A DNA stretch of 60,776 nucleotides, the filler included, from Hausera hauseri (Eukaryota), in assembly GCA_046269625.1 (NCBI GenBank). It is 11 parts of 11 records of this genome, joined end to end, with 100 filler letters (N's around TTAATTAATTAA, not from the genome) between each part and the next. Parts side by side here need not be neighbours in the genome. Positions count along the whole stretch, not along the records: positions 48,796 to 53,904 come from JBJURY010332492.1; 10 more parts are not named here. One strand, 5' to 3'. Positions 1 to 60,233 of the stretch are shown here, in pieces. Within the stretch, counting starts at the first letter, position 1; each line of letters begins with the position of its first letter. The position numbers and the translations under genes were made by a program. The notes below the pieces were generated by a model. The model was not told the DNA's origin, did no database searches, and was given only the letters and a program-made list of their open reading frames with translations.

Positions 1-5
1 CTTAC

Positions 6-4013: not shown

Positions 4014-4113
4014 NNNNNNNNNNNNNNNNNNNNNNNNNNNNNNNNNNNNNNNNNNNNTTAATTAATTAANNNNNNNNNNNNNNNNNNNNNNNNNNNNNNN
4101 NNNNNNNNNNNNN
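4014..4113. other. Artificial contig spacer N44-TTAATTAATTAA-N44 (same at 10120-10219, 15591-15690, 23168-23267, 30418-30517, 34699-34798, 40254-40353, 44363-44462, 48696-48795, 53905-54004)
   Basis: Identical 100-nt spacer with a six-frame stop cassette occurs ten times; sequence type changes abruptly across each. Confidence 0.98.
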
Positions 4114-5200
4114 CACTGACGGTAATGGAAAGGAATCTTTTATCATAAGATTATTTAAGGCTCTGTAGTCAATACAAAATCGATGTTTTGCGGTGCATTT
4201 CTTCTTAACCATAAGGATTGGTGAATATCATGATCTGTAGCTAGACCTAATTATATCGGCCTTGAGCATTCGTTCGACTTTCTTCATTATCTCGGGGCTT
4301 AGTGAATGTGGTGAAGGGTACCATTTTGGCATTTTCTGGTCTTCCAAGTCTATTTCTTCGTTCGAGCCAGGCTTTTTCTTAAGCGGAATAGTCAGTTTTA
4401 CTTCTTTCGCTCTACCGATATCTTCTTCGTCCTTAGCAATAATCGATTTGTAGCGGCATAATAATTCGTAAAATCAACAATAGGATTCGAAGGAGAACTT
4501 AGTTTCGACATAAGGTGGAAACTCGGCATATTTGTAAGGCTTTTCTTCAATAGTTAACGACGACACTCTATACGTATCTCCTAGAGTCGTGTAAGCATGA
4601 AGCTTGACGGGAGTCTGTGCATTGTTAGCTATTCTGATCGGCACTTGACCGCAGTGAACTCTTGTCAGTATGTTACTAAGTGTTATATTCGGATTTAATG
4701 TCTCCCTTGGTTCGAAATATACCGGTTGATCGTCATCTTGCTGAATTTGTGCGTAAATTATCATTTCTGTTCTCGGTGGAATATCTTCGTCTACGGTCAT
4801 CCATACCTCTTTAAATTTTCTATCCTTAGCGTTTTTCACGCCTTTATTGGGCCTAATTTCTATTAACTTCCCTGTCTGTAAGTCAATTGCTATGTTTGAT
4901 AATCTTTTCAGTAGATTACATCCTAGAACTATATCGTCAGTTAATTGTTCCATAACTGCAAATTCGTGATGGAAAAACTGTCCAACTATTTGAACTTCTG
5001 GGTTCCATTTGAACATCGGTTTCGACATTTGGCCAAAAGCTCCCGTACTTCCTGGATATTTTGTGGATGGTGGGTATAACTGTCCCCTTAGCGATTTAGG
5101 TATAGAATCGTTCTTAATGTAAGATATTTCGGATCCTGTATCGATTAGGGAATAAACTTCCCAATCTTCGATAATGATTTTGTCAAAGAGTCTTCCTTCT
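4114..5200 (-). pseudogene. pol: pol 5' part of copy A: aspartic protease, dUTPase-like spacer, start of Gypsy RT
   Basis: EDWEVYSLIDTGSEISYI...DIVLGCNLL (protease); IPPRTEMIIYAQ...VPIRIANNAQTPVKL..YTTLG (dUTPase-like spacer of some Gypsy pols); [31 protein letters not shown] (RT). Confidence 0.9.
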
Positions 5201-15690: not shown

Positions 15691-16075
15691 TCCTCACTGT
15701 TGGGGATCACTTCTATATTGCCATCAATGTTGCCTAATTCTCGGACTATGAAGTGGCTGTCATAGCCACTAAGATTGTGGAATACCACAGGCACATATGT
15801 GCATGTTTTGCAGCGAAGATTACAGTTGTTACATGCTGCGCCCCGATATGCATCTGTAAAATGGCAGTGATCCTTGACGTTCCAATTTTCCTTGGTGAAG
15901 GACTTGTCGCACAAGTAGCATGATGCTGCCTTGCACTATTCTTGTTCTTGTATCCAAGACATGCTCATGTCGTTTTTATGTTGTTGTCGCATCTTTTTTA
16001 ACTTATGAGCCATGTCTTAAAGCCTCTTCATAATAACATTTTGAATGCTTCTGATTGTATTAAAATAATAAGATC
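15691..16075 (-). pseudogene. Polinton/Maverick/adintovirus-type protein-primed DNA polymerase B, N-terminal fragment
   Basis: CYLCDKSF..VKDHCHFTDAYRGAACNNCNL (endonuclease VII-like) then VPVVFHNLSGYDSHFIVREL..IEVIPNSE (exonuclease). Confidence 0.9.
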
Positions 16076-16084
16076 ATTTCATCA

Positions 16085-22000: not shown

Positions 22001-23167
22001 CCTTCATTCAATCCTTCGTTCGATCGTTTGGTCGTTCTTTCATTCGTCCCTTCGTTCAACATTCCTTCTTTCGTGTGTTCCTTCTGTCGTTCGTTCCTTC
22101 ATTCTTTATTTCCTTCCTACGATCGTTCCTTCGTTCCTCCATTCTTTCGTTCCTTCTTTCCTTCGTTCATTCGTTCCTTCTTTCCTTCGTTCCAACTTTC
22201 TTTCTTTCCTTCTTTTATCCTTTCCTTCTTTCGTTTGTTCCTATGTTCGTTCTTTCGTTTCTTTGTTCGTTCATACTTTTGTTCGATTGTTCCTTCGTTC
22301 GAACCTTCATTCTTTTCTTCCTTCCATCTTTCGTTTTTTCTTTGTTCCGTTCCTTCATTCCTTTGTTCCTTTGTTCGCTCGTTCGTTCGTTCGTTCCTAC
22401 ATTTTTTCCTTCTTTCGTACGTTTCTTCATTCGTTCCTTCGTTCTTTCGTTCGGTTCTTCGTTCATTCTTTCGTTTATTCGTTTATTTCTTCGTTCTTTC
22501 GTTCCTTCGTTGCTTTATTCCTTCATTTATTTCTTTGTTCCTTCGTACCTTCGTTCGTTCCTTCATTCAACATTCTTTCTTTCGTTTGTTCATTCTTTCC
22601 TTCGTTCGTTCTTTCCTTCGTTCGTTCGATCCTTCGTTTGAACGTTTCTTCTTTCGTTGTTCGTTGATTCGTTCTTTCCTTCATTCGTTCGTTCCTTCAT
22701 TCATTCATTCGTTCCTTCGTTCTTTGATTCTTTCGTTTGATCGGTCCTTCGTTCGTTCGTTCATTCTTTCTTTCGTTTCTTCGTTCACTGTTTCCTTCTT
22801 TCGTTCGTTCCTTCGTTCTTTCGTTTATTTATTCGTTCTTTCCTTCCTTCGTTTGTTCTTTCGTTCTTTCATTCATTTCTTGGTTTGTTCCATCCTTGGT
22901 TCGTTCGTTCCTTCGTTCGTATTTTTGTTCATTCGTTCCTTCCTTTGTTCATTGCTTCGTTCTTTCGATTATTTATTCTTTCTTTCTTTACTTCATTCGT
23001 TCGTTCGTTCGTTCGTTCATTCGTTGTTTCCTTCGTTTGTTCGTTTTTTCGTTCTTCCTTCATTCGTTTGTTCTTTCGTTCTTTCTTTCATTCATTCGTT
23101 CGTTCGTTCGTTCGTTCCTTCGTTCGTTCGTTCGTTCGTTCGTTCGTTCGTTCGTTCGTTCGTTCGT
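16085..23167 (+). repeat. ~7-kb degenerate (TTCG/TTCC/TTCT/TTCA)n array with internal N100 gap (18872-18971)
   Basis: Strong 4-nt periodicity, pyrimidine-rich top strand, pure (TTCG)n at the right end. Confidence 0.98.
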
Positions 23168-24117: not shown

Positions 24118-27100
24118 CTATGGTTCGAAAAGCATTACTCCATTGATAATATTTGGTGAATATCCTTGTATTAAATGTTCACTTGCGGGTTTCAGAATAA
24201 TTCCTTCTGGGATGATAACAACATTTTTACGGAGTTTTATAGTTGGAATTACTAACTGTCCAGTAGCTAAATTAAGATATCTACCTATGCATTGACGTTG
24301 TAAATCTAGTCCAATTATTACTTCTTCAATTAATTTATCAAATACCTTAAAGGTGTGTTTTAACCTTTTATTATAAATAATAATAGAAGTTGTCCAATAT
24401 CCAACTGGAAGTAGTTTATCTCCCCAACCTGATATAGTCGCTTTGTCAGACTTCCTTGGTGGTTCTACTTCTGTTTTAAATCTTTCAGGTATACTATCTA
24501 ATCGAATGATTGAGTCATCGCTCCCGGTGTCTACTAAGGCAAGTATATCCCAATCATCATGAATAGTAACTAAGGTATACGGACGTTTTGATCCCATTTT
24601 ATCCTTACTTGTTCGTAAAGCACACATGTGATTGAAGGAAGGTATTATAACATCAAGGTTTCCTTCACTGTTTGGATTGTTCACATTTCCATTATCATCT
24701 GGGTGTATTTCGGTTATAGTTACGTTTGTAGTTGGCTCTTTTAATTGCTTTCGTAATTGTTTATATTTAATATAGTCGGCTCTACTTCCTGAATATAACG
24801 CATCTACTTGTCTTTCTATCAAACTTTCAGTTTCAATTCTATTTAACGGTGGTATTGGTAGTCTCTTGTCTTTATATTCTCCAGCATACATCATTTTCGC
24901 CTGATGAGAGGTAAATGAAACGTTATGATATTCGACAGGATTATGAGCTCGCTGAGGGACTAACTGATAATCATTTGCTGCTATATTTTTCATAAACTTC
25001 ATTATTACGCTTCTATGCGTTGTTCGTACTTTAGGATTTTTTTTAACCTTTTTTTGTCGTTTCTTGCCAATTGTTACTTTTGTACTACCGTCAATATTAT
25101 CATCGTCATTCCCCTCACGATCACGCATACATTGCGCCATAAATGCATGTTGTACGCACTTCGCTAGCGGAGGACAAAGTGCTGTTAATAGTTTTTTTGA
25201 ACAGCCAAATAATTGAAAATTAATAAATCCGCTAGTAATTTGAGAGATGATGGTCCTCAAAATTTGAACTATAAAGTAGACAGCTAAGAATCCTGATGAT
25301 ACTTGGCCAAATGTCATTAGACCTCCCCACAACTTTTTAAATATCGTTTTTGCCGCTTTTGTAAAATGGTCCGGACTCAAAATGTTTTCCAAATTCGTTC
25401 TCCCATCTACTGTGTCCGTTATTTTTTGAGTGTATGACACCACTAATCTCTGGATTTGTTTTGGAAACAGTAAGTAACGTCGTAATTTTTCCATGCTAAC
25501 AGCGTCATATAGACCTCCTTGAAAAAAATTGACATTGTTATCGAAAATTAATTTCTTTTTAAACGCCAACATTATCAGTTTTTCAGGAGTTATCACTTTT
25601 GTACGAGATGGCAACGTTACCCAATGATCATGACCTATCTTAAATAATGGTGCAATATTTCTAATACATTCCTTTAGAATAGTTGGCTCTTCTGATGTTA
25701 ATAGCATCACCCTGGTTATTGGTGCAACATACCTCAATTTTCCAATATACTGTACTGCAATTTCGTTGGTACACGCTGTTGTATCCATTACCGGTACCTC
25801 CACTTCCCGACATTTAAATGTTAGTAGCCCTTCGCCTGTAGTTCTTGCAAATATCCCTTTTCCTTTAATTGGTAATATTGGTGTATCTATTGATGGATTA
25901 TGTGCTGCAACGGTAACTCTTAGGGCCAGAAGATCCTGCGAAATTAAACAATCATTTTGAATCATTTCTTTATATAACTGGTATTGATTATGAATCATAT
26001 AATGAAACAGGTAATCCATCTTTCCGTTGTAATATATAATGGGCTTTACTTCGGTAGGATGAATTTGTCTATTAGCTTTGTCTATTTCTTTTTCTGTGAT
26101 ATATATATCCTCTATATTCGTAGCATATACCTCCGTTTTACATTTATTTACTAGCTTCTTTCGTATTAATCGTATTGCATCTTGAGCTGTAGACATAAGA
26201 ACTGCTGGGGTTTCAATTTCTGCTAGCTTTTGTATCTCATCGTTTTGTCGCTCTTCGTGATCCCTTACTGGTTTTCCAAATCTTATTCCTTTCGTAATGT
26301 TAAATTTTACTTCCTTGAGGAAGGCCAAATTACACGTCGTAACACTGATTTCCCACGTAATTACTGAGTCAGTCGTATAACAGTACCCTCTACCATATGA
26401 ACAATCAGGCTTTACCATCAAATTTAGAGTATCCGCTTCGAAGGTTATCTCTTTATCCATTACTGTCCACGTATACAAATTTTGAACAACTAATCGGGAT
26501 ACTCCGTCTACCGTTTCACCTGTACATCCACCATCGGAATCCAACACACCCACCTCATTGATTGTTAAATATTTAATTCCATTTACAATAGTCTGAATTT
26601 CTACCTTGGAATTAATCCTTAATTTCCCAGTTTTTATTGCTTCCTTACAATCATCAGGTAAGACGCGTTGTGGTTCATCTGGTGAAGCCATTAATACATT
26701 AGTCGAATGATAATGCATTTTTCCACAATGCCACTTTTTGGTTTGCTTCGTGAGTCTACATTCGAACGCCTTTTTGCGGAAGAATTTATTTTCCTGATAT
26801 ATATAATATGTTGTTTCCGGTTCCGCAATTAACTTGTCTGGCTCTGCATCCGGACATTTCTCTAAGTCAACAAGTGAATATGTAGCACCGACTTCAGGAT
26901 TGTCACAATCAAATGCTTGAATGCTTTGTCCTTGAGGGATTTTCATAAAAAGGAATATTATAAGTAGGAGGCCCAACATTCCACTAATATCTACTTTTGA
27001 CGGTAATTTAAACATTCCTTCTAGATATCGAGTAGTTTCTAATGTTTTCCTTATTAGACTTTCACTAGTCTTTCGTTCTGTCTTCGATCTCCTCTGGTGG

Positions 27101-27144
27101 CCTAATTGTGTGTTGGAAATCAAATAATCTATCCCATCCTCCAA
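24118..27144 (-). CDS. Envelope glycoprotein-protease fusion ORF (signal 26923-26979; G to ~25140; cytoplasmic linker; protease ~24255-24590; dUTPase-like spacer continuing past the TAG to ~23975)
   Basis: MLGLLLIIFLF..SIQAFDCD..YSLVDLEKC, ECRLTKQTKKWHCGKMH, YVAPITRV, GGLYD..MEKLRRYLLFP, LWGGLMTFGQVSSGFLAVYFIVQILRTIISQITSG..LFGCS..LLTAL (chuvirus-G-like pattern); uninterrupted to ALVDTGSDDSII...VIIGLDL. Confidence 0.88.
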   Translation of the reverse strand: MEDGIDYLISNTQLGHQRRSKTERKTSESLIRKTLETTRYLEGMFKLPSKVDISGMLGLLLIIFLFMKIPQGQSIQAFDCDNPEVGATYSLVDLEKCPDAEPDKLIAEPETTYYIYQENKFFRKKAFECRLTKQTKKWHCGKMHYHSTNVLMASPDEPQRVLPDDCKEAIKTGKLRINSKVEIQTIVNGIKYLTINEVGVLDSDGGCTGETVDGVSRLVVQNLYTWTVMDKEITFEADTLNLMVKPDCSYGRGYCYTTDSVITWEISVTTCNLAFLKEVKFNITKGIRFGKPVRDHEERQNDEIQKLAEIETPAVLMSTAQDAIRLIRKKLVNKCKTEVYATNIEDIYITEKEIDKANRQIHPTEVKPIIYYNGKMDYLFHYMIHNQYQLYKEMIQNDCLISQDLLALRVTVAAHNPSIDTPILPIKGKGIFARTTGEGLLTFKCREVEVPVMDTTACTNEIAVQYIGKLRYVAPITRVMLLTSEEPTILKECIRNIAPLFKIGHDHWVTLPSRTKVITPEKLIMLAFKKKLIFDNNVNFFQGGLYDAVSMEKLRRYLLFPKQIQRLVVSYTQKITDTVDGRTNLENILSPDHFTKAAKTIFKKLWGGLMTFGQVSSGFLAVYFIVQILRTIISQITSGFINFQLFGCSKKLLTALCPPLAKCVQHAFMAQCMRDREGNDDDNIDGSTKVTIGKKRQKKVKKNPKVRTTHRSVIMKFMKNIAANDYQLVPQRAHNPVEYHNVSFTSHQAKMMYAGEYKDKRLPIPPLNRIETESLIERQVDALYSGSRADYIKYKQLRKQLKEPTTNVTITEIHPDDNGNVNNPNSEGNLDVIIPSFNHMCALRTSKDKMGSKRPYTLVTIHDDWDILALVDTGSDDSIIRLDSIPERFKTEVEPPRKSDKATISGWGDKLLPVGYWTTSIIIYNKRLKHTFKVFDKLIEEVIIGLDLQRQCIGRYLNLATGQLVIPTIKLRKNVVIIPEGIILKPASEHLIQGYSPNIINGVMLFEP

Positions 27145-28987
27145 TTCTTTTTATGTCTACGGATAAATAATTCTTTGTAATCTCGGCAGCAACATCGAGC
27201 CCCATCTCAATTTCTTCTCTATTTTGAGCGGAATTTTTTACTCTCATTAAAAGAAATACCAAAATTGTGATCACTCTATCTTTCGTGAATTCCCCAGTTT
27301 TTATCCACCTTTGAATGACGTCTCCATCATCTATGGAATCTATTTTATTTGGTAATTGTTCATTCAGAACAACTTGTTTCAATCGTTGCAAAGCCCGTCG
27401 TAACTGTTCTTCAATATCTAAATCACACGGTTTCTCACATAATTGAATTGCTTCCTCTTCAAACAACACATTATAAATCTTCCATAATATGGACCTAATT
27501 TGTCGGATCTCTGGATCCATAATCTTAATTTCGCTTTTGCGTAACCCTCTGGTTAAGGTATCCACCTTAACCTGTTGTAATAAATTTTTCGGCGGTCTCC
27601 CTGGTGGTTTTTTATCAGTTTGTGTTTGATGGTGCTCAGTTTCTAAATCAGTCAAGTCTTGTACTTCCGAAAATACTTGCAGTGGTTCTGGGGTGATTAA
27701 TTCTTCAGACTGATGTTCCGGTCCATTCCTCACCTTCAATGGTCTCACTACTTCAGTCAAGGCCAAAACACTTTTAATTTGTTTTTCTAGCTCTTTTTCA
27801 TTGTCTTTGTTAGTTTTCCTATGTTCATCTATATGTATAATGACAATTTCATCCGCGTCCATTTCTGGTACGATACCCAATTCTGACCATGTAATACTTG
27901 CATCATCTGTCTTTCTACCCATAAATTCCACAGTTATAGTCCCAGTATTTTCATTCCCATAATATTTTCTATAGTAACTCTCGACTGTTTGGAGTGTCTG
28001 CCAAATCGTATCCAATGGATTTATCATAATTTCCAAATCATCACTTTTTGATCCAATTCGCATTTGAAATTTGACTAAAATTTCTTTTTGACAATTAAAA
28101 GTTTTAAACTTATCCTTATGTGAAAACATTTGTAGTATTAATCTCGCCATGTCCCTTCTCGGACAATTATCCGCAGCCTGCTGTACTAAAAATGGTCTAA
28201 TTTGCAAAAATCTTGCCCTTTCATCAGTAACCCATTCACGTATTTTGTATAATTGGTTTAAGCCGGCCGTCATTATTCCATCATCTTTCTCGTTTCCTTT
28301 AATAATTTCTACCAATGTTTTAAAGGCATTTTCCTGCCATGCTATATCCAATTCATAGTTGATTTCGCGACTTCCTTCCAACGATATCGATGGAGTGTCT
28401 ACATCTTCTTCTAATACTAATATACTTATGTCATTCTCTTGAACTTTCACGTCATTTCTTTTAACTACCTTTTGAATTAGGTGTTCCTCTAATTTATTCT
28501 TTAAGGATACAGCCTGATTATCTTGAATATTCTTCAGCCTTTGAAATTGATTCTTAACATCATCCCGTTCAAGCGTTAACCGTTTTATTTCTAGAAGCAA
28601 CTGGTCATTCGACATGTACAATTCCTGGGAACTATTTAAATCTAAAGGTACATCTAAATACTCCTTTATTTCTGTATCATTTATTTCCGGAACATTCAGC
28701 ATTTGTCGATGATTCATGATTTCGTCTTCGACAAATACCAAATTGTTACTATATATCTCTGAATCAGACTGCATAATAGATAAATTACTGGTTCCAGTTA
28801 TCAGCGGGCACACCTTCGCCAAATGTCCTGATTGACCACAATTAAAGCAATTTTTATGTTTCTGCAATACTGGTTGCTGTACTAACGATTGGGTTGTCAT
28901 TAATTGCTGCACTGGCATTTGCAATGGACATCTTTTAGATGTGGCCCCACTGACCACAAGTATTACATTGTTTCGGTGTTTGAACAT
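27065..28987 (-). CDS. Gag C-terminal extension: CCHC knuckle, coiled coil, Ubl (27827-28084), AT-hook-like (27584-27613), Bcl-2-like (27116-27520)
   Basis: CFNCGQSGHLAKVC; ILVKFQMR..LEIMINPLDTIWQ..ITVEFMGRKTDD..TWSELGIVP..IVIIHI; KKPPGRPPK; GEFTKDRVITILVF (BH1-like) and YLSVDIKRIGGWDRLFDF (BH2-like). Confidence 0.75.
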   Translation of the reverse strand: MFKHRNNVILVVSGATSKRCPLQMPVQQLMTTQSLVQQPVLQKHKNCFNCGQSGHLAKVCPLITGTSNLSIMQSDSEIYSNNLVFVEDEIMNHRQMLNVPEINDTEIKEYLDVPLDLNSSQELYMSNDQLLLEIKRLTLERDDVKNQFQRLKNIQDNQAVSLKNKLEEHLIQKVVKRNDVKVQENDISILVLEEDVDTPSISLEGSREINYELDIAWQENAFKTLVEIIKGNEKDDGIMTAGLNQLYKIREWVTDERARFLQIRPFLVQQAADNCPRRDMARLILQMFSHKDKFKTFNCQKEILVKFQMRIGSKSDDLEIMINPLDTIWQTLQTVESYYRKYYGNENTGTITVEFMGRKTDDASITWSELGIVPEMDADEIVIIHIDEHRKTNKDNEKELEKQIKSVLALTEVVRPLKVRNGPEHQSEELITPEPLQVFSEVQDLTDLETEHHQTQTDKKPPGRPPKNLLQQVKVDTLTRGLRKSEIKIMDPEIRQIRSILWKIYNVLFEEEAIQLCEKPCDLDIEEQLRRALQRLKQVVLNEQLPNKIDSIDDGDVIQRWIKTGEFTKDRVITILVFLLMRVKNSAQNREEIEMGLDVAAEITKNYLSVDIKRIGGWDRLFDFQHTIRPPEEIEDRTKD

Positions 28988-44489: not shown

Positions 44490-46240
44490 GCCCATTTTTA
44501 CACTACTAAGTCTAAACCAAATATAAATGTGTGTACATTAGCTATTGTAAATGTCCATGTGAATGTGTTTGTGAAGTGTGGGAGGGTGAATGTTAATGTG
44601 GTAACTCCAAAGATTTGTAAAGATTCAATGGACGCAGTAAACAGTTGCTTTTGTGAAGTGTAATTGTGTTGTATGTGTTGTTTTGGTGGCAGCAGAGAGA
44701 TTGCTGCACCCGTATCTATAAGAAAGTTTAATTGTTGTTTTGTTGGAATGACGACTGCTGCTTCCAACGTAAAAATTCGATGTTTATGTTTTTCCTGGTT
44801 GTTGCCTTTACTAGGACTTTCCGTATGTCCTAGTGTCGAAATTAGTTTTTTGGAGCTGGTAAGTTTGGCCTACTGTTTTGTGTGAGCTTGTTAGTGTTGG
44901 TCTTATTGTGTGTGCAGTAAGTACAGCCAGGTAGGCATTTTTGTGCTTTTGTGCCAAATTTTGAGTGGTAGATGCAAACAATGTTACTTGTATTAAAACC
45001 AGAGGAAAAAAATTTACAACCGATACAGCACTTCTGAGCATTGTTGCCAAATTTACAATGATAATAGCAAATAAACGACCGCACGGGGACGGCGACCGTC
45101 TGTAACGTTGACTAAGTAGATTTGGGGAAAGCGGCTTAGAAAAACCCCGTCGAGGTAGTGTTAATGCGTTTAGTTCATCGTTAATGTTGTTGATTGTTTT
45201 TTTTGCAATGTTTCACTTTCTGTGCGTAATTGCGCAATTTGTTGCTGCAGCATTGCATTTTGTTGTTGTTGATCTGTTGTCAGTGCTGCAGAGATAGTTG
45301 GTGCTGCAAGTGAGTGCAGTACTTCGTATGCCTTGTCTGCCAGTTTGGTTAGCTTGTCAAGAGCCGTGGAGTCCTCAACCACTGTTGGCAAGGCTCTTAT
45401 TTGAAGGGTCAATGCATTTAAGAAATTGCGACGAAGAAGCTCGGAACTGTGTTTAGAGGTTATGCCAAGGGTGTTGAGGTGATACAAGGATGTGCGTAGG
45501 AATTAAGAAGGCTTCTGAGGGCCCATGGCGTTGTCGTTAAAGAACCTTTGAATGACTGAATCGATTGAAGGATCAGTAGGCTTGAGAACGGCACTGTAGA
45601 GTTGTGTATATGGGTCAGCGTGCTGAAGGATATAGATTATATTGATGATTTTAGTTTTAATTGAAGATGGTAAGTGGAAAAAGAGGCTGTTGGCTTTGAC
45701 TAAATAGTTGACGACATTTTGCGATTGCAGCCAAAATTGGTGCAGCTTTAACCACGTTTGAGTAGAATTTTGGCTATTGAGAAAGTATTCGGTGCAGGGT
45801 GTATAAGTAAGGAGGGTATGTTGAGTAGGGATGTTGGAAGCGCTGTGTTTGGGTAAGTGGATAATGGGGATTTGTTGTTTAGTGAGTTTGTCCGTGGTGT
45901 CAGTTGTGGGTGACGAATCCATAAATATGGAGATAGATTTGGTTGTGGAAGATTGTGGAGTTCCAGCGAGGGATACTAGAAATCCGTTGTGTGTAAGGTA
46001 GAAATCAGAGGAGTGGAATAAGGTAGAAATGAAAGTGTGAATAATCGCAGTGTATAAATGCAATGTTATGTATGTATGTGTTTATTATTTAGAAAAAGAA
46101 AAATGGAGAAGGGCGAGGTAGTGTGCCCGGGGGTGTGTTGCAGGGCTGAAGCGAAAGGCGCCGTCTGACCCACTAGCGCAGGGTGGGCGGCCGGGACCTC
46201 AGCCTCGCAGCGGCAGGTCCCAAATTTCGGGGTGACCGAT
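44490..46240 (-). mobile_element. Gypsy family C copy 1 (leader, gag, protease)
   Basis: Gag homologous to 52029-53123 (TDPSIDSVIQRFF..QKPS); CYYHCKFGNNAQKCCIGC; protease FLIDTGAAISLLP. Confidence 0.88.
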
Positions 46241-46799
46241 GACCCCTCTGGCTGTTCATCCTAGTCTGCTGTTCTAAAGTCAAGTTGCTGGGTTTCATCG
46301 GGCATGGTTACAATTGATTTCAACAGCGGGGAATGAACAGAATTGTTTTTATAGGCAAATTTGATCAAAATATTCATACAGCACTTAATATATATTGCAA
46401 TAATAGTTGAATTACCTTTATATGAATTACTCAGTGTCTCTTTATCGGATGCACTGGAACAGAAACGCTCAATTCCTTCGATAGCTGAGGATGAACTTTT
46501 ATTGGGGAATTTGCAATTTACATCGAGCTCATCAGTATTGCTAACAGTACTTTCCTGATCTCCGTCGTCATTTTTCGATTTTTTCTTTTCCGCTGAATCA
46601 TGGGGCTGATAATTCAACATTTCAATAGCATTCTCGAGAAAATAATAGCTGACAGGATGTGTTCGATCTTCAATTTCAAGAACGAAAACTGAAGGAAAAA
46701 AGTTGTTGAACATTTCGACATCAATAGTAGAACTCATCAGAATAATTTTCAATTGTGAATATGCCACTACTTCTGCTAGACAAATAATTTTCTGTGATT

Positions 46800-47465
46800 T
46801 TGCCGTATTAGCATCCCGCCAGATCTTATCCTATTTGAGTCGCAATTCGTTCTTTACCCATTGAGATATGACAGCCTCATTCAATTCTGTTCGCAATTCT
46901 TGAACTTTCCCTTTCGTTTCAACACTTGTCAAATTTTTTACCCAACAACTCTTAAATTCGCCCACTCTTCTCCAATAAAGTCTCCAATCGAATCGCACTG
47001 ACTGCATCAAATCGTGTCAACGCCAATATTCGCCATTTCTTAGCAGATAGTGCTTTTTAAGAAATTATAACGAGATTGCCGATATGACCGCTGTTCTTCA
47101 AATAAGTACCACTACAGAATTCGATTGACGCGTTGTTCCATTGGGCATCGTTAATACCGGCTAATAGAACTTCGATAAGCACTCCAACAGACGCAAAACG
47201 AACAGAATCTGGATACGTCTTACCGAATACTGCCCGAATATCCTCGATGACTTTCGCTGAAACTAACGACACTTCTACAAATACCTCCAAATCATTGTCG
47301 ATGATGTCTTGACAGATCTTCTCTACCCTTCGCAATTATTCTATAGTTAATGCTCCATCTGATTTGAAATCGAATCGCAATTTTTTTGGTGTAACAAGAG
47401 ACCCCTCTTGGTTAGTGTCATTCAATACTTCCCTCAAAGCGTAATTGACAACGTGTACCGTATGG
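46800..47465 (-). pseudogene. AARS1: Alanyl-tRNA synthetase editing-domain fragment
   Basis: [65 protein letters not shown]; stops and frameshifts; no introns. Confidence 0.9.
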
Positions 47466-48345
47466 TGACATATACTTAACTTCTGCGGTTACCACTTCTG
47501 GATGAGTCGAATAAAGTCTAGCGCAATCTATTCATTCTGGAATTATTAGTGCGAACAATTGTTTTCTCGTCCACAACATTTGCGGCTTATAAATTGCTGG
47601 TTTCGGCAAACGACCATTCCATGTTGGCAATTACATTAGATGATGCATCATTTCGCACGATTGATAAACACGTCTCTACGGGTCATTTTATTGGACGCAG
47701 TTGGTGTATCCTGTACCATACTCACAACTGGCTTGTTACTTTGAGTTGTAATGACCAATTTTCTGACACGGGCTAGATCAGGTACTTCGGCCTTTGTTTC
47801 AACGGATTGTGGCAAATGCAAATTCATTTCATCACATCAAAATCGGCGTTGTAAGGTGTTGTGACACTGAGGTTCAATCGAAATATTGAGAAGGGCAAAA
47901 CTTTCACTCGATGGCATATCACTGACATTTTGTGCAGTTGGTTGTCAAATGAATACCACAAAATCGTCGTTAAGCATATGACGCTCCATGGTTTATCCGT
48001 ACTGTAATCGAACGTCTGATGTATCTGTTCATCGTTTCAGGTCAATTCGTTCAGCATTGCCTCTTATAACAAATGCAGCACCAGGGTACATTGATCCATT
48101 GTTGACCAATTGTTGGCGATAATTGATGTTATAAGGTGTAATCTTCTCTGGAAACGTCACATTTTGAGCAATCATTTGAGGAACACCGACTTGATCGGCA
48201 TTAATGACCGTACGATCTGAGTAATTCGTTCTCTTTCCCGTTAAATTTGACCTAATTCGACCATGTTTATCCTTTAATCGCTGCTTTATGCTTTCCAACG
48301 GTCTGCCGGATTTTTGCGTTGCGACCGGTAAAAAAGGATTGTCAT
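47463..48345 (-). pseudogene. POLR2A: RNA polymerase II largest subunit fragment
   Basis: [63 protein letters not shown] (1-nt deletion in the catalytic NADFDGD), KPAIYKP..WTRKQLF, STHP. Confidence 0.92.
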
Positions 48346-48795
48346 TATAAGTAAGAATTAAATCTGTGTGCCATATGAGAACCTTGAAATACATTTTAAT
48401 CCTGTCACTGCTTGCTTTAGCATTTTGTGTGAAACTACACATTTTGTGTGTAGTTTCTAAAGTGATTGTTTCTTCTGCTGTAGCTAAGCCCATTGTTATG
48501 ATTCAGATTATTTTATCCTGGTGAACCCACTATTTTTGGATGTCATGCTGCAGAAAGAAACATGAAATAAATGTCAGGTTGAGTTTATTTTGTCTGCTGC
48601 TTGCAGGAAAGGGAAGAAAATGCCTAATAAAAGACTTCCTAAATTTAATATACCACAAAGTGAAACATTAACAAATAAAAATTTATTTTTAATCANNNNN
48701 NNNNNNNNNNNNNNNNNNNNNNNNNNNNNNNNNNNNNNNTTAATTAATTAANNNNNNNNNNNNNNNNNNNNNNNNNNNNNNNNNNNNNNNNNNNN

Positions 48796-51700
48796 CTAAA
48801 ACCAGAAGGAGATTGATCTTTTAACCACACAAACTTGGCAAAGTATAAATCCTTCGGAATGTAAGATTTGTTGTCATTAAAGAGGCAGCAGAATGAATCT
48901 GAGCTGACCTCGATGAAGTGAGATTTTGCCGCACGAATGTTTTCCTCTGCAGGATTGTCGTCGAGAATAGAAAGTTCAAATAAGGCTTGAATTGGAGTCC
49001 CAAAGAGTCTTCAGCTACAGCACAACTGGTAGTAATCGAAGGTGTGTTGCGCCATCCTAGTAGAACAAAAGGTAGAATGGACGTCCAATTGCGATGAGTG
49101 TCAGTTAAGGTTTTCAGAGACACTTTCATCGTACGATAGAACCTTTCAAGAAGGCCATTTGCTTGAGAATGATATGGAGTTGTGTGAAAATGGGATATCC
49201 CCAAGCGTTTGACAAGTGATTTAAAAAGCTCAGTCTCAAATTGTGTACCTTGATCCGTTATTATGTAACGTGGGGAACCAAATCAACTGATCAAGATTTT
49301 AATAAAAGCGTCGGCTACTGAATCAGTGTTTGTCGAATGAAGAGGGACGGCTTCAGGCCAACGAGAAGCACGATCCATCACAGTAAGTATGTGTTGATAT
49401 CCGTTGTCGGCAGATAAAGGACCAACTAAATCAAGATGAATTGTATAAAAGCGTGATGTACAGGGAAAGTGGTAAAGTGGTGGTTTAAGATGTTTGTTAA
49501 TCTTGTATTTTTGACAGGCCTTGCATTCTTTGACCCAGTCCTGTACATCTTTGCGCATTGACGGCCATACTACATGACGTTGAAGCAGGAGAAAAGTTGC
49601 TTTTCGAAACTGGATGATGAAGTGAATGCGTATGAACAAAAGCTGGCTTTTGTAAAGGTGGTGCTATGATAACCCTTTTATTGCCTGCATTAGACGTATC
49701 AAAAGCTATTCCATCAATAATCTTGTAGGATTTGAAAGAACTGAGTAACTCAGCAGATGGTTTATTGGCCTTTAAGACTTCAGATGAAAAAATCGGCTCA
49801 ACTGTAATGGATGGAACCGACCTCGATAGAAAGTTAGCTACCACATTATCCGTGCCTGAGATATATTCCAAAGTAAAACTGAACGTTGATAGGGATGATA
49901 TATGTCTCTCTTGCCTCGGTGATGGCTCTTTTAACGACATTATATGCAGCAGAGGCTTATGGTCAGTTTTAATGACGAATGGTCGCGAGAGAAGTAAGTG
50001 TTTGAAGTGTTTTACTGCAAAACCTATGGCGAGTAATTCACGGTGAAATGTGGAGTAACGGCTCTCGGTTTGTGTCAGCTTCCTAGAATAGAATTCTAAT
50101 GGCTCGTCGACGCCATTAGAAATCTGGTGTAGTACAGCACCAGTAGCTGTGGTTGAGGCATCGGTTGTAATAATAAAATCTGCCATGGGTTTCGGATAAG
50201 CCAGTATTTCTGCGGTTTTAAGACCTTCGCGCAAATGATCAAACTTGGTTATCAAATCAGGATTCCAGTGGATCAACTGCCTCTTTTCTCCGGATGATAG
50301 ATGTGCGAAAGGAGCTGTAAGCTAAGAGCAATGAGGCACGTAATTGTGGATGAAGTGGAGTGTGCCTAAAAAGCTTCTCATGTCAGTGGTTGTTGTTGGT
50401 AGCGTTATGTTCTTTAATTGTTGTAGTCGATCTGGTTGTGGAGAGTGGCCGTCAGGAGTGATGACGTGACCTAGGAAATTTACGCGTTTTTGAAAGAAAT
50501 GACACTTGGCGAAGTTGACTTGCAAATTGCTATGATGTAATCTGTGAAAGATAATACGAAGGTGTTCTTGATGTTGTTTGACAGACGTAGAGGCAACTAG
50601 TATGTCATCAATATATGGATGAGCGAAGTCTAGGCCTGACAGTACAGTATCTATGTGCCGTTGGAAAGTTTGGAACGCACTACGTAAACCAAATGGCATA
50701 AAGATATATTCGTAGAAGCCAAATGGAATAATAATAATAGCTGTTTTTGGAATATCATCAGGTGCAACAAGAATCTGATTATATGCTTTATGCAAGTCAG
50801 TTGTGGAGTACGTGTTAGTGTTGGTAAGGTTTTGCAGGATGTCATTTATTAGAGGTAAAGGATAAGCATCTACGACTGTTAGATTATTTAATTGCCAATA
50901 ATCACTGCATGGTCTATATGTGCCATCTTTCTTCGTCACAACATGCAAAGGTGAGGCCTATGGTGATTTGGATCGTCGAATAATGCCCGCCTTTTCGAGT
51001 TCGTTAAACTCTGATTCAACGGCTTTTCGTCTGCGAGATGACAGTGGTCTGACCTTTTGTCTAATAGGTCTTTGGTGTTCGGTGATTATGTGATGATATG
51101 TTGTAGAATGAGGTTTGAAATTGATATCCTTCTTAAGAGTGCGGGAACATGAAGTCTTAATGTAGGATTTAAGGTCACAATCTAACGATGAGAATAATGA
51201 TGGCATATTATTATAAGAGTCAGTTGCTGTAATCGATGTGCAGAGACTAGGTGCTTCATTAACGACATTTGGTTCAGCCGAATGTTTCAAAATTGATTTG
51301 CTACCACTTGGCGAGATTGAAAATCTAGATGAAATGTTAAATGCGTTGTTGTCCACCGATGAGCAGGATGTCACATTGATATTTGAACGATGTGAGGAAA
51401 ACAAGGTTTCCGACTGGTCTTTTGGCAAGTATTTGTTAGAATTGGCAGTGAAGTCTCTGCGCAGGAGGCACTTATGCTTGCAGTCGACTAACAAGTCGTA
51501 TGCAGCCAAGAAATCTGAGCCTATTATAGGCGATCTGATGTTGGCTATATGAAAATTCCAGGAAAATTTCCCTGGTAGGTTGTTACCTACAGTGTTCAAA
51601 GGTTGACCACAGGCAGTGAAGAGTGGAGGAGACAGAACTGTTTTAGATGTAGGAGCGAAAGACAAAGGAAGAAGTGAAAAAGCAGCTCCTGAATCAATAA

Positions 51701-53160
51701 GGAAATCTACGTGTGATGTGTTCCCAAATAATAGATCAGCTTTCAACAGAAAGACTGCAGAAGCGGTGTTGAAACGGCCAGTAGTTTGAACGATATTGCC
51801 TGTACCAGAATGTGCCGTGGCATCTGGTGGCATTACTGGTTTTTTGAGACTTGTTGGTAGGAGGCGGACGAATGGTGAGTGTGTGGAGACGAAGAAAATG
51901 GAGAAGAACTAGGATTCCTTTTATAATGCTTACATTCTGGTACGCATGACCTAGCCTTGGACTGGTACCTTGAGTGATAGATGCAGATTGGATTGCTACG
52001 GCATATCGTGCATCGTAGAATCGCCAACCTAAAACCCACTTCCGTCATCTCTGCGGAATTTGTTGTGATAGAAACACACCATTTTGCCCTCTCTAGATTT
52101 AGAACGAGAAGAGTGCCTAGACAAACTGCGATCGCGGAAAATGCGATTTTCGCTCCCTCGGGGCACATATAAGCCGCTGAGTTGGGCGGTGATTGCAGAA
52201 ATTGCTTGTTGTAGGGTATCGAATTGTTTCTGCATCAAGTTTAGTTGCTGTCCAAATAACGTGTTGTCTGGCAGTATGTGAGCAGTTGCTGCGGCTATTG
52301 GCTGAGAGTTATTGGACTGCAGAATATCGAAGCTTTTGTCTGCCAATAAGGCGAGCTTTTCGAGGGCAGTAGAGTTATCTACAACAGTAAGCAACGCTCG
52401 GATGGAGGTTGGCAGAGATGAGAGAAAGTATCAACGAAGACGATCAGCATTGTTTGTCGGAGTCACGCCTAAAGAGCTCAGGTGAGAGATGGCCATTTTA
52501 AGGAAATCTGGTGGTTTTTGATTTCCAATGGCGTGTTCGTTAAAGTACTTCTGGATAATGCTGTCGATTGAAGGGTCGGTGACATATAGAACCGACTCGT
52601 ACAGCATATCATACGGGGTTGAAGAGGAGAGTATGTCAGCCAAGTTACTTATCTGCTGTTTGATGTTGGCTGGGAATAACAGCAGTAAACTCTTAGCCCG
52701 CAGAAAGGGATCTGTAATGTGATTGGCTTTTAACCATTGCAAGTGGAACTGCAGCCAGGTACGACTAGAATTCGTCTTGTCTAAAAAGAAATCCGTGCAT
52801 GGGAGATTGGGACATATGTTTGTTGTAGGATCGACAGGACGACGGTCTGATCTAGTTTTTGTTATGTGTTCGGTAGAAGGATCAAGGTCTGATCCACCAC
52901 GGATGCAAAAATGAACACAGAGAGTGATGGAATATTTATCAGGTGCAAAGGATGAAAAATAGTTGTAAGGTTGCAAAGTTAGGCCGTTGTGCATAAGGTA
53001 AAAATCAGAAAAACCGAAATAAGAGTACAATTCAGTATAAAGAATGTGAGGTGTTTGTGCGTGTGTAACCCTTAATGTGTGGATATGTTTATGATTAGAA
53101 AAAATAAAAAAGAAAGGGTACATGGCGCAACGGGTGCGGGCACGCTCGGTCCCTCAACCA
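48796..53160 (-). mobile_element. Gypsy family C copy 2 (gag-pro-RT-RH-IN), decayed
   Basis: FLIDSGAAFSLLP; PYIDDILV; TTDASTTATGAVL; HLDLVGPL, ITDQG, ANGLLERF; PBS-like TGGTTGAGGGACC at 53160-53148. Confidence 0.93.
52893..53123 (-). CDS. N-terminal 77-aa ubiquitin-like domain of Gag ending in IRGG
   Basis: MYPFFFIFSNHKHIHTLRVTHAQTPHILYTELYSYFGFSDFYLMHNGLTLQPYNYFSSFAPDKYSITLCVHFCIRGG aligns end to end with the 76-aa ubiquitin pattern. Confidence 0.7.
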
Positions 53161-53525
53161 AATCATTTATGAATAATGAAATACGGATAGGTAAGTTATC
53201 TCTTTCGACCATCTTCGGACTAAGTTCCAGATTAAGACACCAGAGTGATTCAGCTTGTGTTTTGTTTCTCTCAGTAACCGTGTCATAGAAAGTAGTTAGA
53301 AGTGAGGACTTGGCACCAACCCCCTCCCCAGGGAAGGAAGGAAGCCAATGGGAGGAGAATACGTCATCGGAGGAAAGTAAACTGGCGAATGAGAAGAGGA
53401 CACGTCATCGCGGGGTGAGGAAAACTGACCAATCAGGGAGGGAAGCTGGTGCCAAGTGGGTTTCACTATTGAACAAAGCATTATCTGTTGATGCCAACTG
53501 GGTTTCACTATTCCCACCCATTATT
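53161..53525 (-). repeat. Putative 5' LTR/promoter of family C copy 2
   Basis: Immediately upstream of the PBS-like TGG; CCAAT and TGACGT motifs; 20-bp direct repeat GCCAA.TGGGTTTCACTATT at ~53451 and ~53493. Boundaries uncertain. Confidence 0.45.
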
Positions 53526-54185
53526 TGTTTTAATTTTAGTGGTCGGGTATAAATATAGATGTGTAAATAGCATGGCGTTGTTTCAAGGAATAGTACAATA
53601 AATGGTAAGTTTTTGTACTGCTAAATAATTCATATACTTAGAATTACAAAATAGATTTAGAAGCTTAAATTAAACGGCTCACAAAGGAAATATGCAGTGG
53701 GAAAATAGACTGTGTACAGTTTCTTAATGAAATGGACAATGGATACTATCTTTCAAAAGAAGATTATGTTGAACTTGTTGTTCGTTCAATACTAATGACA
53801 AAGATTAAAGAAGAGTTTAGAAAAAGGCAGAGAAATATTATACTTGCGTGTAGTATACTTACTGGTGCATTTGTAGTATTTTTATCTAGATTTGTTCATT
53901 AATANNNNNNNNNNNNNNNNNNNNNNNNNNNNNNNNNNNNNNNNNNNNTTAATTAATTAANNNNNNNNNNNNNNNNNNNNNNNNNNNNNNNNNNNNNNNN
54001 NNNNTGCCTAGAATTGTGAAAACAGTAAAACCACTGCAGCCAATATTAAAAAACGACTAGAAGAAGCAGTACGTGACGAAAAACAGCTTCAAGTTGCAAA
54101 AGATTTTTATTTGCCATTAGCAATTCGTGCTGGTCAGATCTATTTTGCTTTTGCGGATCTTTCAATCAATAATAACATATACCAG

Positions 54186-57100
54186 TTTTCCAGCAAGTAT
54201 CAAGCAGCAAATCAATAATCTTGCCGATATACTCACCTCTTTAAATCCATATGATATGCTTTATGAATCAGTCCTACATATCACCGACCCTTCCATTGAC
54301 AGCATAGTACAAAAGTACTTCAATGAGCATGCTATCAAAACTCAAAAACCGTCGGATTTACTTAAAACTGCAATTTGACAGCTAAGTTCCTTAAGCGTCT
54401 CTCCTACAAACAATGTCGATCTTCATCTGTATTTTCTTTCTTTTTTGCCCACCTCTATCAGAGTGTTGCTTACGGTAGTAGAGAATTCAACAGCACTTGA
54501 GAAACTCGCCTTACTGGCAGATAGAAGTTTCGACATCTTGCAATCAAATGGTTTACAACCAGTAGCTGCAGCAACCACTTACACACCATCACATACAGAT
54601 AACATTTTATTTCCACAACAACTGCAAATGATGCAGAAACAGTTCGACACACTTCAACAAGCAATCTCTGCGATTACAGCCCAACTTAGTGTGTTATCTG
54701 TGCCTCGAAGAAGCGAAAACCGTGTCTCGCGCAATCGTAACCTTTCCAAGAATTTTTTTCGGTCCAAATCTCGAGATGGAAGAATGACTTGTTTTTATCA
54801 CAATAAATTCCACAAAGACGCAAGGAAGTGTGTTTTGGGCTGTAGATTTTACGACGAACGTTATGCAGTATACAGCCCACTGCATTTATCACACAAAGTA
54901 TCAGTTCAAGGCTAAATCGTGTGTGCCAGGATGCAAATGTTATAAAAGGAATTCTAGTTTTTCTCCATCTTCTTCGCCTCCTCGTACTCATCATTCCTCT
55001 TCTATTTCCCAACAAGCCTAAAAAAACTAACAGCGCCGCCAGATGTCACGGCACATTCTAGTATAGGCAATATCGCTCAATCTTCTGGCCATTTCAATAC
55101 CGCCTCTGCAGTCTTTCTGTTGGAAGCTGAACTGTTATTTGGAGACACCTCACAAATAGACTTCCTTATCGATTCAGGAGCTGCCTTTTCACTTCTTTGT
55201 TTGTCCTTCGCTCCTACATTTAACACTCCTACATTTAACTCTTTGCTGTTTGTGGTCAACCTTTGAACATTTTAGGCACCACAAAACTGTCCTTCACATT
55301 CTCCAACCTACCATGGAAATTCTCTGGGAAATTTCACATAGCCAATATTAGATCGCCCATAATAGGCTCCGATTTCCTGGCTGCATACGATTTGTTAGTC
55401 GACTGTAAACATAGATGTCTTCTGCACAGAAACTCCGTTGCAAATACCAACAAATGCTCACCAGACGACCAGCCGTATACCTTCTTGTCTTCCGCTGTTC
55501 ATTCAAATGTCAATGTGAGATGCTGTTCATCGTCTGATAACAATACGCTTGATAATTCATCCATATTTTCAATTTCGTCAAGTGGAAACAAATCAATCTT
55601 CAAACAATCGATTGAACCGTATGTTTTTAATGAAGTGTTCACTCATTCTACATCAATTACAGCCACTGACTCTTCCAATAATATGCCGTCATCTTTCTTA
55701 TCATTGGAATCCAATCTTAAATCCTACATCAAAACTTCTTGTTTCCTCACTCTAAAGAAGGACCTCAATTTCAAGCCGCATTCTACAACTTATCACCACA
55801 TCGTCACCGAACACCAATGACCTATCAGACAAAAGGTCAGACCACTGTCACCTCGTAGACGAAAAGCCGTTGAATAAGAGTTTAATAAACTCGAAAAGGC
55901 TGGAATTATTCGAAGATCCAAATCACCATGGGCTTCACCTTTGCATATAGTGACAAAGAAAGATGGCACTTACAGACCATGTGGTGACTATCGGCAGTTA
56001 AAAAACCTGACAGCCCTAGATGCTTATCCTTTACCCGTCATAAAGGACATCCTGCACAGTCTTACCAACACTAATACGTACTCCACAATTGACTTGCGTA
56101 AAGCTTATCATCAAATTCCGGTTGCACCCGATGATATTCCAAAAACTGCTGTTATTACTCCATTTGGCCTTTATGAATATATCTTTATGCCATTTGGTTT
56201 ACGCAGTGCTTCCCAAACTTTTCAACGGCACACTGATACCGTCCTCTCAGGCCTTGACTTTGCTCATCCATATATTGGTGACATATTAGTTGCCTCCACA
56301 TAGGTTAAACAACATCTAGAACACCTCCGTATTATCTTTCACAGACTACATCACAGCAATTTGCAAGTCAATTTTTCTAAGCGTCATTTTTTCAAAAACG
56401 TGTTAATTTCCTAGGCCACATGATCACTCCTAATGGCCACTCTTCACAACCGGATCGACTACAACAATTGAAAACATAACGTTGCCAAAGACCACGACGG
56501 ATATGAGGAGTTTCTTAGACACACTGCACTTCATCCACAAATACGTACATCATTGTTCTGAGCTCAGGGCACCTTTCGCACATCTATCTTCAGGGTAAAA
56601 GAGGCATTTATTTCACTGGACTCCTGATTTAGTCGCCAAATTTGATCACTTACGCGAAGATTTAAAAACCGTAGAAATACTGGCCCATCCTACAGTCAAG
56701 GCAGATCTTATACCTACGATCGATGCCTTTACCACAGCTACCGGTGTAGTACTACACCAGATTTCTAACGGCGTCAATGAACCATTAGAATTTTACTCCA
56801 GGGAACTAACACAACCCGAAATCCGTTACTCAACATTTGACCGTGAGTTACTCGCCATAGTTATGGCAGTAAACAATTTCAAGCATCTCCTCCTCTCTTG
56901 TTTATTTATCATCCAAGCTGATCACAAGCCTCTGCTGCACATCATCTTATGAAAACAGCCATCACCGAGGCAGGAACGACAGATATCATACCTGTCTACT
57001 TTTAGTTTGATTTGGAATACATCTCAGGCACAGATAATTTGGTAGCATATTTATATCGAGGTAGGTTGGCTCCATTATAGTTCAGCCGATTTTCTCATCC

Positions 57101-59240: not shown

Positions 59241-59325
59241 ATCCTATTATTGAAAGGCTTTTAAAAACTTTAGTATTTTGACATTACTCCAACCGTCTTC
59301 AAATATTCTCCAAAGGATTTTTTAG

Positions 59326-60233
59326 GTAGTGTATCAAGAAATAAATGATATTGAAAAACTAAAGCGAAATTTTCAAGAAATTTTAACGAAGTTCGAAGGA
59401 ACTTACCATAAAGTGAGTTAGCATGGGTAGTGAAAAGCTCTTACATTTTATTACTTCAGGAATACCAGTTCATTTTCTTTGATCAAGCAGTCCATCATGT
59501 CGTTCGGATTTGCAGAATTCTACAACTTCACAAAGGACACATGCTCATAATTGGAACTGAAGGTTGTGGGAAATATTCCAATTTGAAAATTAGTTGCATC
59601 TTGTCAGGCATTGAACTTCACAAACTCAATATGACTTCGAAATAAAATTTACGAATCACGTCTTTCAGAAATGATGTGAAGAAAATTTTGGAAAAATCCG
59701 TTCTGTTAAATAAAAAATGTGTATTGTACTTATCCGATATGAACGATCTGACAACAAATTCCTTCATGGATGACTTAATTTGTTTACTCAACTCTGGCTA
59801 TATTCCTGATATCTACAAACAAAAGAAATTAGAAAGTATATACTCGCGACTTAAAGACGAGGTTGCTTCAGTGGAATTATCCAAAGATACAAACGTGTTA
59901 TACGATCATTTTATACAGAAAATTAATCGAAATCTTCACATTTTTATTTGACTTAGTCCGTCGAACCCGGATTATTTAAGCCGTTTGGAAAATAATGTTA
60001 GTTTGATAAATTATTGTACAATTGATTGGTATGATGATTGGACGACTCATTCGATGTTACACGTTTCCAAATATCGAATAGTTAAAATATTCGACAATAT
60101 ATCTCATGAAGTTCAGGATAAGTCGGTTTATATCAATACAATCACAGACGCATGTATTTACATATACAAAACAACTATTGATATTGGCCAACGGTTTCAA
60201 AATGAACCACGAATACCATATCATATTGATTGA
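59326..60233 (+). pseudogene. Dynein heavy chain (axonemal-like) AAA4-region fragment with 47-nt intron (59413-59459) and two in-frame stops
   Basis: FFDQAVHHVVRICRIL..GHMLIIGTEGCGK, FMDDLICLLNSGYIPDIY, NLHIFI*LSP, SLINYCTIDWYDDW; GTGAG...TTCAG phase-0 intron. Confidence 0.85.

Follow-up and report, generated by a model that had tools for sequence, protein, structure and literature searches.

A diverged ubiquitin-like domain with a probably cleavable Gly-Gly end at the start of Gag in a CsRn1-like retrotransposon lineage

The domain-bearing element and its surroundings

The window, i.e. the whole stretch of 60,776 nucleotides of Hausera hauseri DNA analysed here, consists of eukaryotic contigs strung together with N spacers between them. 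The contig at 48796-53904 carries on its minus strand an element that is, judging from its coding regions, a broken, CsRn1-like Ty3/Gypsy LTR retrotransposon: Gag begins at 53123 and is followed by protease, reverse transcriptase (RT), RNase H and integrase. For comparison, five relative loci were fetched, three of which (L001-L003) contain a full gag.

The first 77 residues of Gag (52893..53123, minus strand; Met1 to Gly76-Gly77) constitute the ubiquitin-like domain, identified by translation, profile, structure model and fold search. It closes with a ubiquitin-type tail, F-C-I-R-G-G (52893..52910, minus), and the tail pattern in relatives lets us predict a cut after Gly77 and before Ser78. 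There follow a flexible linker (residues 78-109; 52797..52892, minus; pLDDT below 50 at residues 83-104) and a DUF7041-like capsid part (52431..52796, minus), which is assigned through its relatives, is helical in the model and extends to a premature stop at codon 231. The remaining Gag (51830..52430, minus) is frame-broken; the first CHCC motif at about 52025-52076 is disrupted, and the second one, CX2HX9CX3C, is intact in the sequence of this copy (51932-51985, minus). An A-AAA-AAC heptamer ahead of the Gag stop (51845-51839, minus) is presumably a -1 frameshift site. The start of pol (50958..51833, minus) bears the protease motif FLIDSGA and runs to a stop near the start of RT; it matches the protease region of L002-L004 and yields no match in Pfam. 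RT, RNase H and integrase are likewise broken (48911..50864, minus; 46-47% identity to the Pol of L001 in tblastn; Pfam RT_RNaseH, E 3.5e-30).

The domain-bearing copy is dead: Gag is interrupted at codon 231, the frame changes within the zinc-finger region, and pol contains stops. Its contig stops at 48796, short of any 3' LTR, and searches of this copy for an LTR pair and for a primer site identified neither. A separate repeat lies head to head with the element at 53280-53904 (plus strand), and its summed depth far exceeds the depth over the 5' part of the element; it contains CCAAT/TATA-like sites on the plus strand, an inverted pair of 22 nt (53308-53457) and a short ORF with a hydrophobic end. 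This arrangement may explain the failure to find a 5' LTR.

Two further copies are present in the window. Copy 1 (45431..46260, minus) is a related, decayed element with a leader, a ubiquitin-like remnant without GG and a capsid (35% identity over 217 residues); its Gag, at about 46110-45431 on the minus strand, has a frame change and a stop inside the domain and another stop in the capsid. The third copy, on the next contig (54187..58082, plus), is 79% identical over 3,920 nt in a nucleotide comparison, and is uninformative on the domain because its sequence begins inside the capsid. Broken host-gene fragments beside the elements, at 47000-48500, 54005-54187 and 59300-60230, are what we take to be RNA polymerase large subunit-like, tRNA synthetase-like and dynein heavy chain-like pieces. 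A long simple repeat of the TTCG/TTCT type at 16000-23100 is a source of spurious ORFs.

The window also includes an env-bearing element, with a fusion-glycoprotein ORF at 24118-27015 (Pfam PF24664, E 9e-74). Residues about 300-390 of its minus-strand frame at 27065-28987 are a candidate internal ubiquitin-like stretch without GG. The domain profile of the lineage described below finds no match at 27-29 kb, in this element, and the sequences are compatible with an origin of the Gag domain independent of the putative domain of the env-bearing family.

A diverged ubiquitin fold at the start of Gag

An initial sequence-only reading had proposed that Met1 to GG77 fits ubiquitin in length and pattern and continues in frame into Gag. 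Translation of 53123-52893 (minus) bears this out: the 77 residues, ending in CIRGG, contain HTLRV, FYLMHNGLTL and KYSITLCVHFCIRGG, and the frame stays open into Gag as far as codon 231. Taken alone, the domain of this copy has no match in Pfam and only a weak one in the PDB, to SDE2 (E 0.81); its single-sequence fold reaches a pLDDT of 40, with a ubiquitin-like spacing of helix and strands. In the ESM Atlas, the four named or Pfam-bearing entries are all ubiquitin- or SUMO-like (0.85-0.87) and the top scores (0.89) belong to unnamed entries, a result that we regard as a lead only.

Relatives extend the comparison. A 25-member profile was built from relatives outside the window's own subclade, leaving out two near-ubiquitin members. 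It gives the 77 residues 21.5 bits and the first 70, i.e. without the tail, 16.3; among 1,999 scored shuffles with the final GG left in place, the maximum is 10.8 bits. When a 26-member profile, again omitting both near-ubiquitin members, is compared with the PDB, 275 sequences match at E up to 0.01, and the best 60 are all ubiquitin, ISG15, OASL or FAT10. With E up to 0.1 as the limit, the Pfam ubiquitin family is recognized in 8 of the 31 aligned members, at best with an E of 2e-24.

A model predicted from the alignment of these 31 rows, which were chosen for having the domain and include the two near-ubiquitin ones, has a pLDDT of 82 (about 80 in the domain) and shows a beta-grasp, then a disordered linker, then a helical capsid. 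Its elements are strands 4-9 and 12-18, helix 25-36, strands 41-45 and 48-50, helix 56-59 and strand 65-72, and it superimposes on ubiquitin with a TM score of 0.78 and an rmsd of 2.2-2.5 A. The fold search is taken up by matches over residues 1-77, to SUMO, FAT10, ISG15 and ubiquitin (Z 11.7-9.4). From profiles and model together, Gag residues 1-77 are almost certainly a diverged ubiquitin fold.

The roughly 30 domains share about 25-85% pairwise identity in the measured pairs. At the core positions, 28-31 of the 31 sequences keep a hydrophobic residue. The place of Ile44 is hydrophobic in ten of them; that of Lys48 is occupied by Lys in 22, and by Leu in the window's copy.

Distribution of the domain and its Gly-Gly tail

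A phmmer search of 1.84 billion representatives returned 18 matches, 17 of them Gags, and 13 of these 17 align only from residue 95 or later. The remaining match, P0008, is a bacterial surface protein and was dropped. GG lies 14-39 residues ahead of the capsid motif in 13 of the 17 Gags; as for the other four, one is chimeric, one begins inside the capsid, and in two just 23-27 residues lie upstream. The profile search added 41 proteins: 28 belong to the lineage (18 have GG, and the other 10 begin at the capsid or within it), and 13 are ordinary DUF7041 Gags, none of which matches the domain profile of the lineage. No homolog emerged among 282 candidates of a word-based search with the window's protein; a search with alignment A5 gave four extra proteins only, the domain in none of them, and a related-locus scan with P0017 found no locus.

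Thus counted, 45 related Gags, mostly found via their capsid part, comprise 31 with GG ahead of the capsid, 11 that start at or inside it, and three in which the domain is absent: P0015 (27 residues before the capsid), P0019 (23) and P0014. For these three, both a true loss and a late start call are possible. GG is present in 31/31 aligned sequences by selection, and the unbiased count is 31/45. The conservation of RGG across copies, a point raised by the sequence-only reading, holds for the GG of most relatives and fails in copy 1, which, as that reading had noted, keeps SDFYLTHNG and lacks RGG; none of three frames has a GG at this place, and a Met occupies the position after the missing tail.

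Deubiquitinases (DUBs) read the Arg72/Leu73/Gly-Gly tail of ubiquitin and cut poorly before Pro. Over the 31 sequences the tail reads R-[LI]-x-G-G, with Arg at the place of Arg72 in 26 and Leu or Ile at that of Leu73 in 29; the residue after GG is Ser (16), Gly (4), Met, Asn or Thr (3 each), Ala (1) or Asp (1), and never Pro. The lineage hence has what a cleavable fusion calls for, namely a domain-terminal GG, a passenger in frame and no Pro next to it. The linker is 14-39 residues long in relatives. GVRS and GVRW matches in P0003 and P0020 were taken as chance.

DUF7041 is found in 16 of the 31 aligned members at E up to 0.1, and not in the window's copy. A capsid tree of 52 rows (midpoint-rooted, long branches flagged, no AU test) sets 12 ordinary DUF7041 Gags apart from 40 lineage rows, 30 with the domain and 10 N-terminally short, with a support of 100/98; 14 near-duplicates and short fragments were omitted from it. 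CX2HX9CX3C occurs twice in 25 and once in two of the 27 listed lineage members, and at most once in 15 out of 15 others. From its CHCC motifs we name the lineage CsRn1-like, and not CsRn1. In L001-L003, a different TGG-starting motif, not the CsRn1 primer motif, directly follows the LTR; copy 1 presumably has a Trp-like primer motif. ARAGORN and Rfam found no tRNA by which the primer could be assigned. The Gags P0003, P0020 and P0014 are joined to host-gene pieces (CNOT1/Rrp44, histone H2A, LRR), which could be either joins made by the gene caller or captured gene fragments.

Within the window's own family, three DNA runs contain the element, and no RNA dataset carrying it is listed. The domain is covered by 262 contigs of run X1 and 20 of run X3 with no listed indel, and there is no stop among the 40 listed variant places (42 in all) on it. 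Codon 73, equivalent to Arg72, is Cys in the window's copy and Arg in 45 contigs of run X1, and codons 74-77 have no listed variant place in the run contigs. The GG block has a summed depth some four to six times higher than mid-domain, which implies that more diverged contigs still fit there. Synonymous changes make up 15 of the 40 listed, hardly above the 34% expected from transitions, and are weak evidence of selection.

Near-ubiquitin members

P0041 and P0042 carry, according to Pfam, a near-true ubiquitin at the same site of Gag. By eye, 56 of 75 residues of the P0041 domain (75%) are those of ubiquitin (E about 1e-30). P0041 is the sister of P0039 (support 100/99); 131 of 156 capsid residues are identical between the two, and 13 of 51 in the domain. 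P0042 groups with P0045 (weakly, 90/65), with 112 of 156 identical residues in the capsid and 17 of 74 in the domain. The simplest reading of these sequences is that host ubiquitin replaced the diverged domain at least once, and the likely donor would be ubiquitin itself, not SDE2. The occurrence of diverged and near-ubiquitin domains in sisters suggests that domains with very different surfaces can replace one another, which would be expected were cleavage all that matters.

The translated leader

In L001-L003, the Gag frame starts from an ATG within the LTR, 135-210 nt ahead of the primer-site motif, and crosses the primer site stop-free into the domain; the opening ATG of L001 lies between polypurine tract and primer-site motif, i.e. 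inside the LTR. Up to the domain, the leader is stop-free for 130-135 codons in DNA of 28-29% GC. Shuffled leaders are open in 2, 1 and 1 of 20,000 cases, respectively, in tests that are not independent draws, as the three loci are related to one another and the query itself came from L001. L001 (positions 1-4321) runs from the end of pol through a polypurine tract (2406), one LTR, the primer site (2759) and gag to the protease, with gag and pol frames open, and is a circularly permuted element, representing either a collapsed repeat or a one-LTR circle.

For L001 against L002, the LTR part has a dN/dS of 0.90, the stretch between primer site and domain 0.37, the domain 0.48 and the capsid 0.10; in comparisons with L003, the values are 0.77-0.88 for that stretch and 0.43-0.48 for the domain (values of 0.00 result from saturation and were disregarded). 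Given its 0.37 for L001 and L002, the stretch between primer site and domain is not clearly unconstrained, and in L002 it contains a second frame without stops. More widely, 15 of 30 relatives have the primer site read as peptide upstream of the domain, in one or other of two frames; in 19 of 30 the domain is preceded by more than 100 residues, two of these 19 being probable gene-caller joins.

In the window's copy, Met1 stands at the start of the domain and in-frame stops lie 11 and 14 codons upstream, so removal of a leader cannot be the reason for the domain there as the copy stands. Copy 1 shows an open leader frame similar to that of L001-L003. A 158-codon ORF at 46261-46737 (minus), in the frame of the copy 1 leader and of the first strand of its remnant, with one stop between, is possibly such a long translated leader.

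Comparison with known systems

The CX2HX9CX3C (CHCC) motif of Gag defines the CsRn1 clade, including CsRn1, PwRn1 and AgCR (PMC2582038). The lineage shares with this clade the CHCC signature, a DUF7041-like capsid, the order PR-RT-RH-IN, and gag and pol in separate, overlapping frames, as these are described in the parts of that source used here (PMC2582038). Unlike the clade, it has, at the N-terminus, a ubiquitin-like domain ending in GG; the main text of PMC2582038 does not contain the word 'ubiquitin'. Further differences are the mostly two CHCC motifs, the other primer-site motif (L001-L003) and a Gag frame that opens in the LTR.

Cellular hydrolases cut the ubiquitin inserted before NS3 of pestiviruses, even when extra residues lie upstream (PMC8310069). 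As in the insertions of BVDV Osloss, CP1 and CP Rit, a captured ubiquitin would serve as processing signal and give an authentic downstream N-terminus; according to the sections consulted, the pestiviral cases are sporadic recombinants with a near-intact ubiquitin in the polyprotein of an RNA virus (PMC8310069), whereas the lineage has a fixed, deeply diverged, lineage-wide domain on a capsid precursor, whose cleavage is a prediction. USP5 cuts SDE2 after its GG (PMC13572447). SDE2, too, combines a diverged N-terminal ubiquitin fold, a GG end and a working C-terminal part, the cut again being predicted for Gag; yet in the account given there it is a host gene and exposes a destabilising Lys, while the lineage would mostly expose Ser, Gly, Thr, Met or Ala (PMC13572447).

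The nearest case in a retroelement is the internal SUMO-like domain of Burro/GYPSM1, a planarian giant Gypsy element whose polyprotein includes a ubiquitin-fold domain (PMC6431247). Burro/GYPSM1 is described as a giant env-bearing element whose Gag-Env-Pol polyprotein includes internal SUMO-like, MATH, BIR and BCL-2 domains; the SUMO-like one lies after Gag, between MATH and BCL-2, and the passages of the source concerned propose no cleavage at a GG (PMC6431247). This architecture differs from that of the lineage, in which a Gag of ~400 codons is followed directly by PR-RT-RH-IN and the domain sits ahead of the capsid. A Gag with an N-terminal, GG-ended ubiquitin domain was not found among literature titles and the beginnings of abstracts, with subscription journals, Repbase and GyDB outside that scope; what is probably new here is a ubiquitin cap, probably cleavable, in a CsRn1-like lineage.

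Interpretation

Gag of LTR retrotransposons is normally matured by the element's own protease. According to our preferred reading, to which we assign a probability of roughly two in three, Gag in this lineage carries a captured ubiquitin-like cap that a host DUB cuts off, giving Gag an exact N-terminus and discarding the leader. An ancestor would have captured host ubiquitin ahead of Gag. A host protease of the USP or UCH type would cut the precursor after Gly-Gly, earlier than the element's own protease and without depending on it, and so leave Gag and Gag-Pol with a fixed small N-terminal residue, mostly Ser. Since the same cut would discard any peptide translated upstream, the start codon could sit in the LTR and the leader RNA could keep its priming and packaging jobs. 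The domain would drift save for core and tail and would occasionally be swapped for fresh host ubiquitin. That a host DUB cuts Gag after Gly-Gly is in itself quite likely, by analogy with the known fusions and in view of a tail that is kept while the surface is not: R-[LI]-x-G-G is widespread, as against a hydrophobic residue at the Ile44 place in 10/31.

Cleavage by a DUB would also be compatible with a domain that acts chiefly as a helper of co-translational folding and expression and raises the yield of Gag, in the manner of ribosomal ubiquitin fusions, the exact N-terminus and the removal of the leader being side effects. FUBI-eS30, a host gene whose precursor reportedly has an N-terminal ubiquitin fold with GG cut by a host USP, is said to be a precedent for a ubiquitin-like fusion of this kind. 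The well-kept core (28-31 of 31) fits such a role, and so does the window's copy, where the domain stands at the very start without an in-frame leader; but a folding lead from the N-terminus is harder to argue for the 19 of 30 relatives with more than 100 residues before the domain, and the stop-free leader stays unexplained. We consider this explanation unlikely.

Somewhat less probable still is an active ubiquitin mimic, released by the cut and conjugated to host proteins or blocking DUBs, E1 or ubiquitin receptors in opposition to host defence. The sequence-only reading had named a released decoy beside DUB-dependent maturation. Cleavage would free a C-terminal GG, the place of Arg72 is kept (26/31), two members have near-authentic ubiquitin, fast change of the surface could reflect conflict, and Burro elements carry several domains of the ubiquitin system, as reported in the sections used (PMC6431247). 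Against a mimic, the Ile44 place is hydrophobic in 10/31 only; the dN/dS of the domain is 0.43-0.48 and not above 1, sisters with 25%-like and 75%-like domains suggest that only cleavability matters, and long unrelated leaders would stay attached to the released product. The decoy is the weaker of the two readings because the Ile44 place is poorly kept and the domain usually carries a long N-terminal leader.

If the domain were instead retained on Gag as a tag, it could mark Gag for degradation and so limit Gag and copy number, or it could attract trafficking factors that bind ubiquitin. Lys at the Lys48 place (22/31) would be predicted by the former role; for the latter, ubiquitin fused to retroviral Gag relieves budding defects in the work as far as drawn on here (PMC3751857). 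Such a tag needs neither an invariant GG nor the R-[LI]-x before it nor the absence of Pro after it, the Ile44 patch is lost, Leu stands at the Lys48 place of the window's copy, and no env gene is seen in L001 (which covers the end of pol, the LTR and gag), all of which makes retention improbable. A chance likeness in an untranslated leader, with Gag starting downstream, would account for the lack of a Pfam match, the poor single-sequence model and the Met right after the missing tail in copy 1 or after GG in P0004, P0009 and P0010, but its probability is negligible, as there is no Met between residues 45 and 209 of the window's copy, domain homology and GG recur across the lineage instead of an unconserved untranslated region, and near-ubiquitin members, PDB profile matches and 21.5 bits against the shuffles refute it as to homology.

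We thus return to the cap that is cut off by the host. In its widest form, which we put forward tentatively, an old and widespread lineage may delegate the first maturation step of Gag to host DUBs, with a start in the LTR, a throw-away leader and a periodically refreshed ubiquitin. If this is true, DUB expression would gate when and where these elements build particles, a possible point of host control on transposition. The lineage would be the retroelement counterpart of the pestivirus ubiquitin insertions, fixed over deep time, and an instance of a single host gene being captured repeatedly at a single site. With its tail kept, it would also amount to a natural mutational scan of what DUBs need in a ubiquitin-like substrate.
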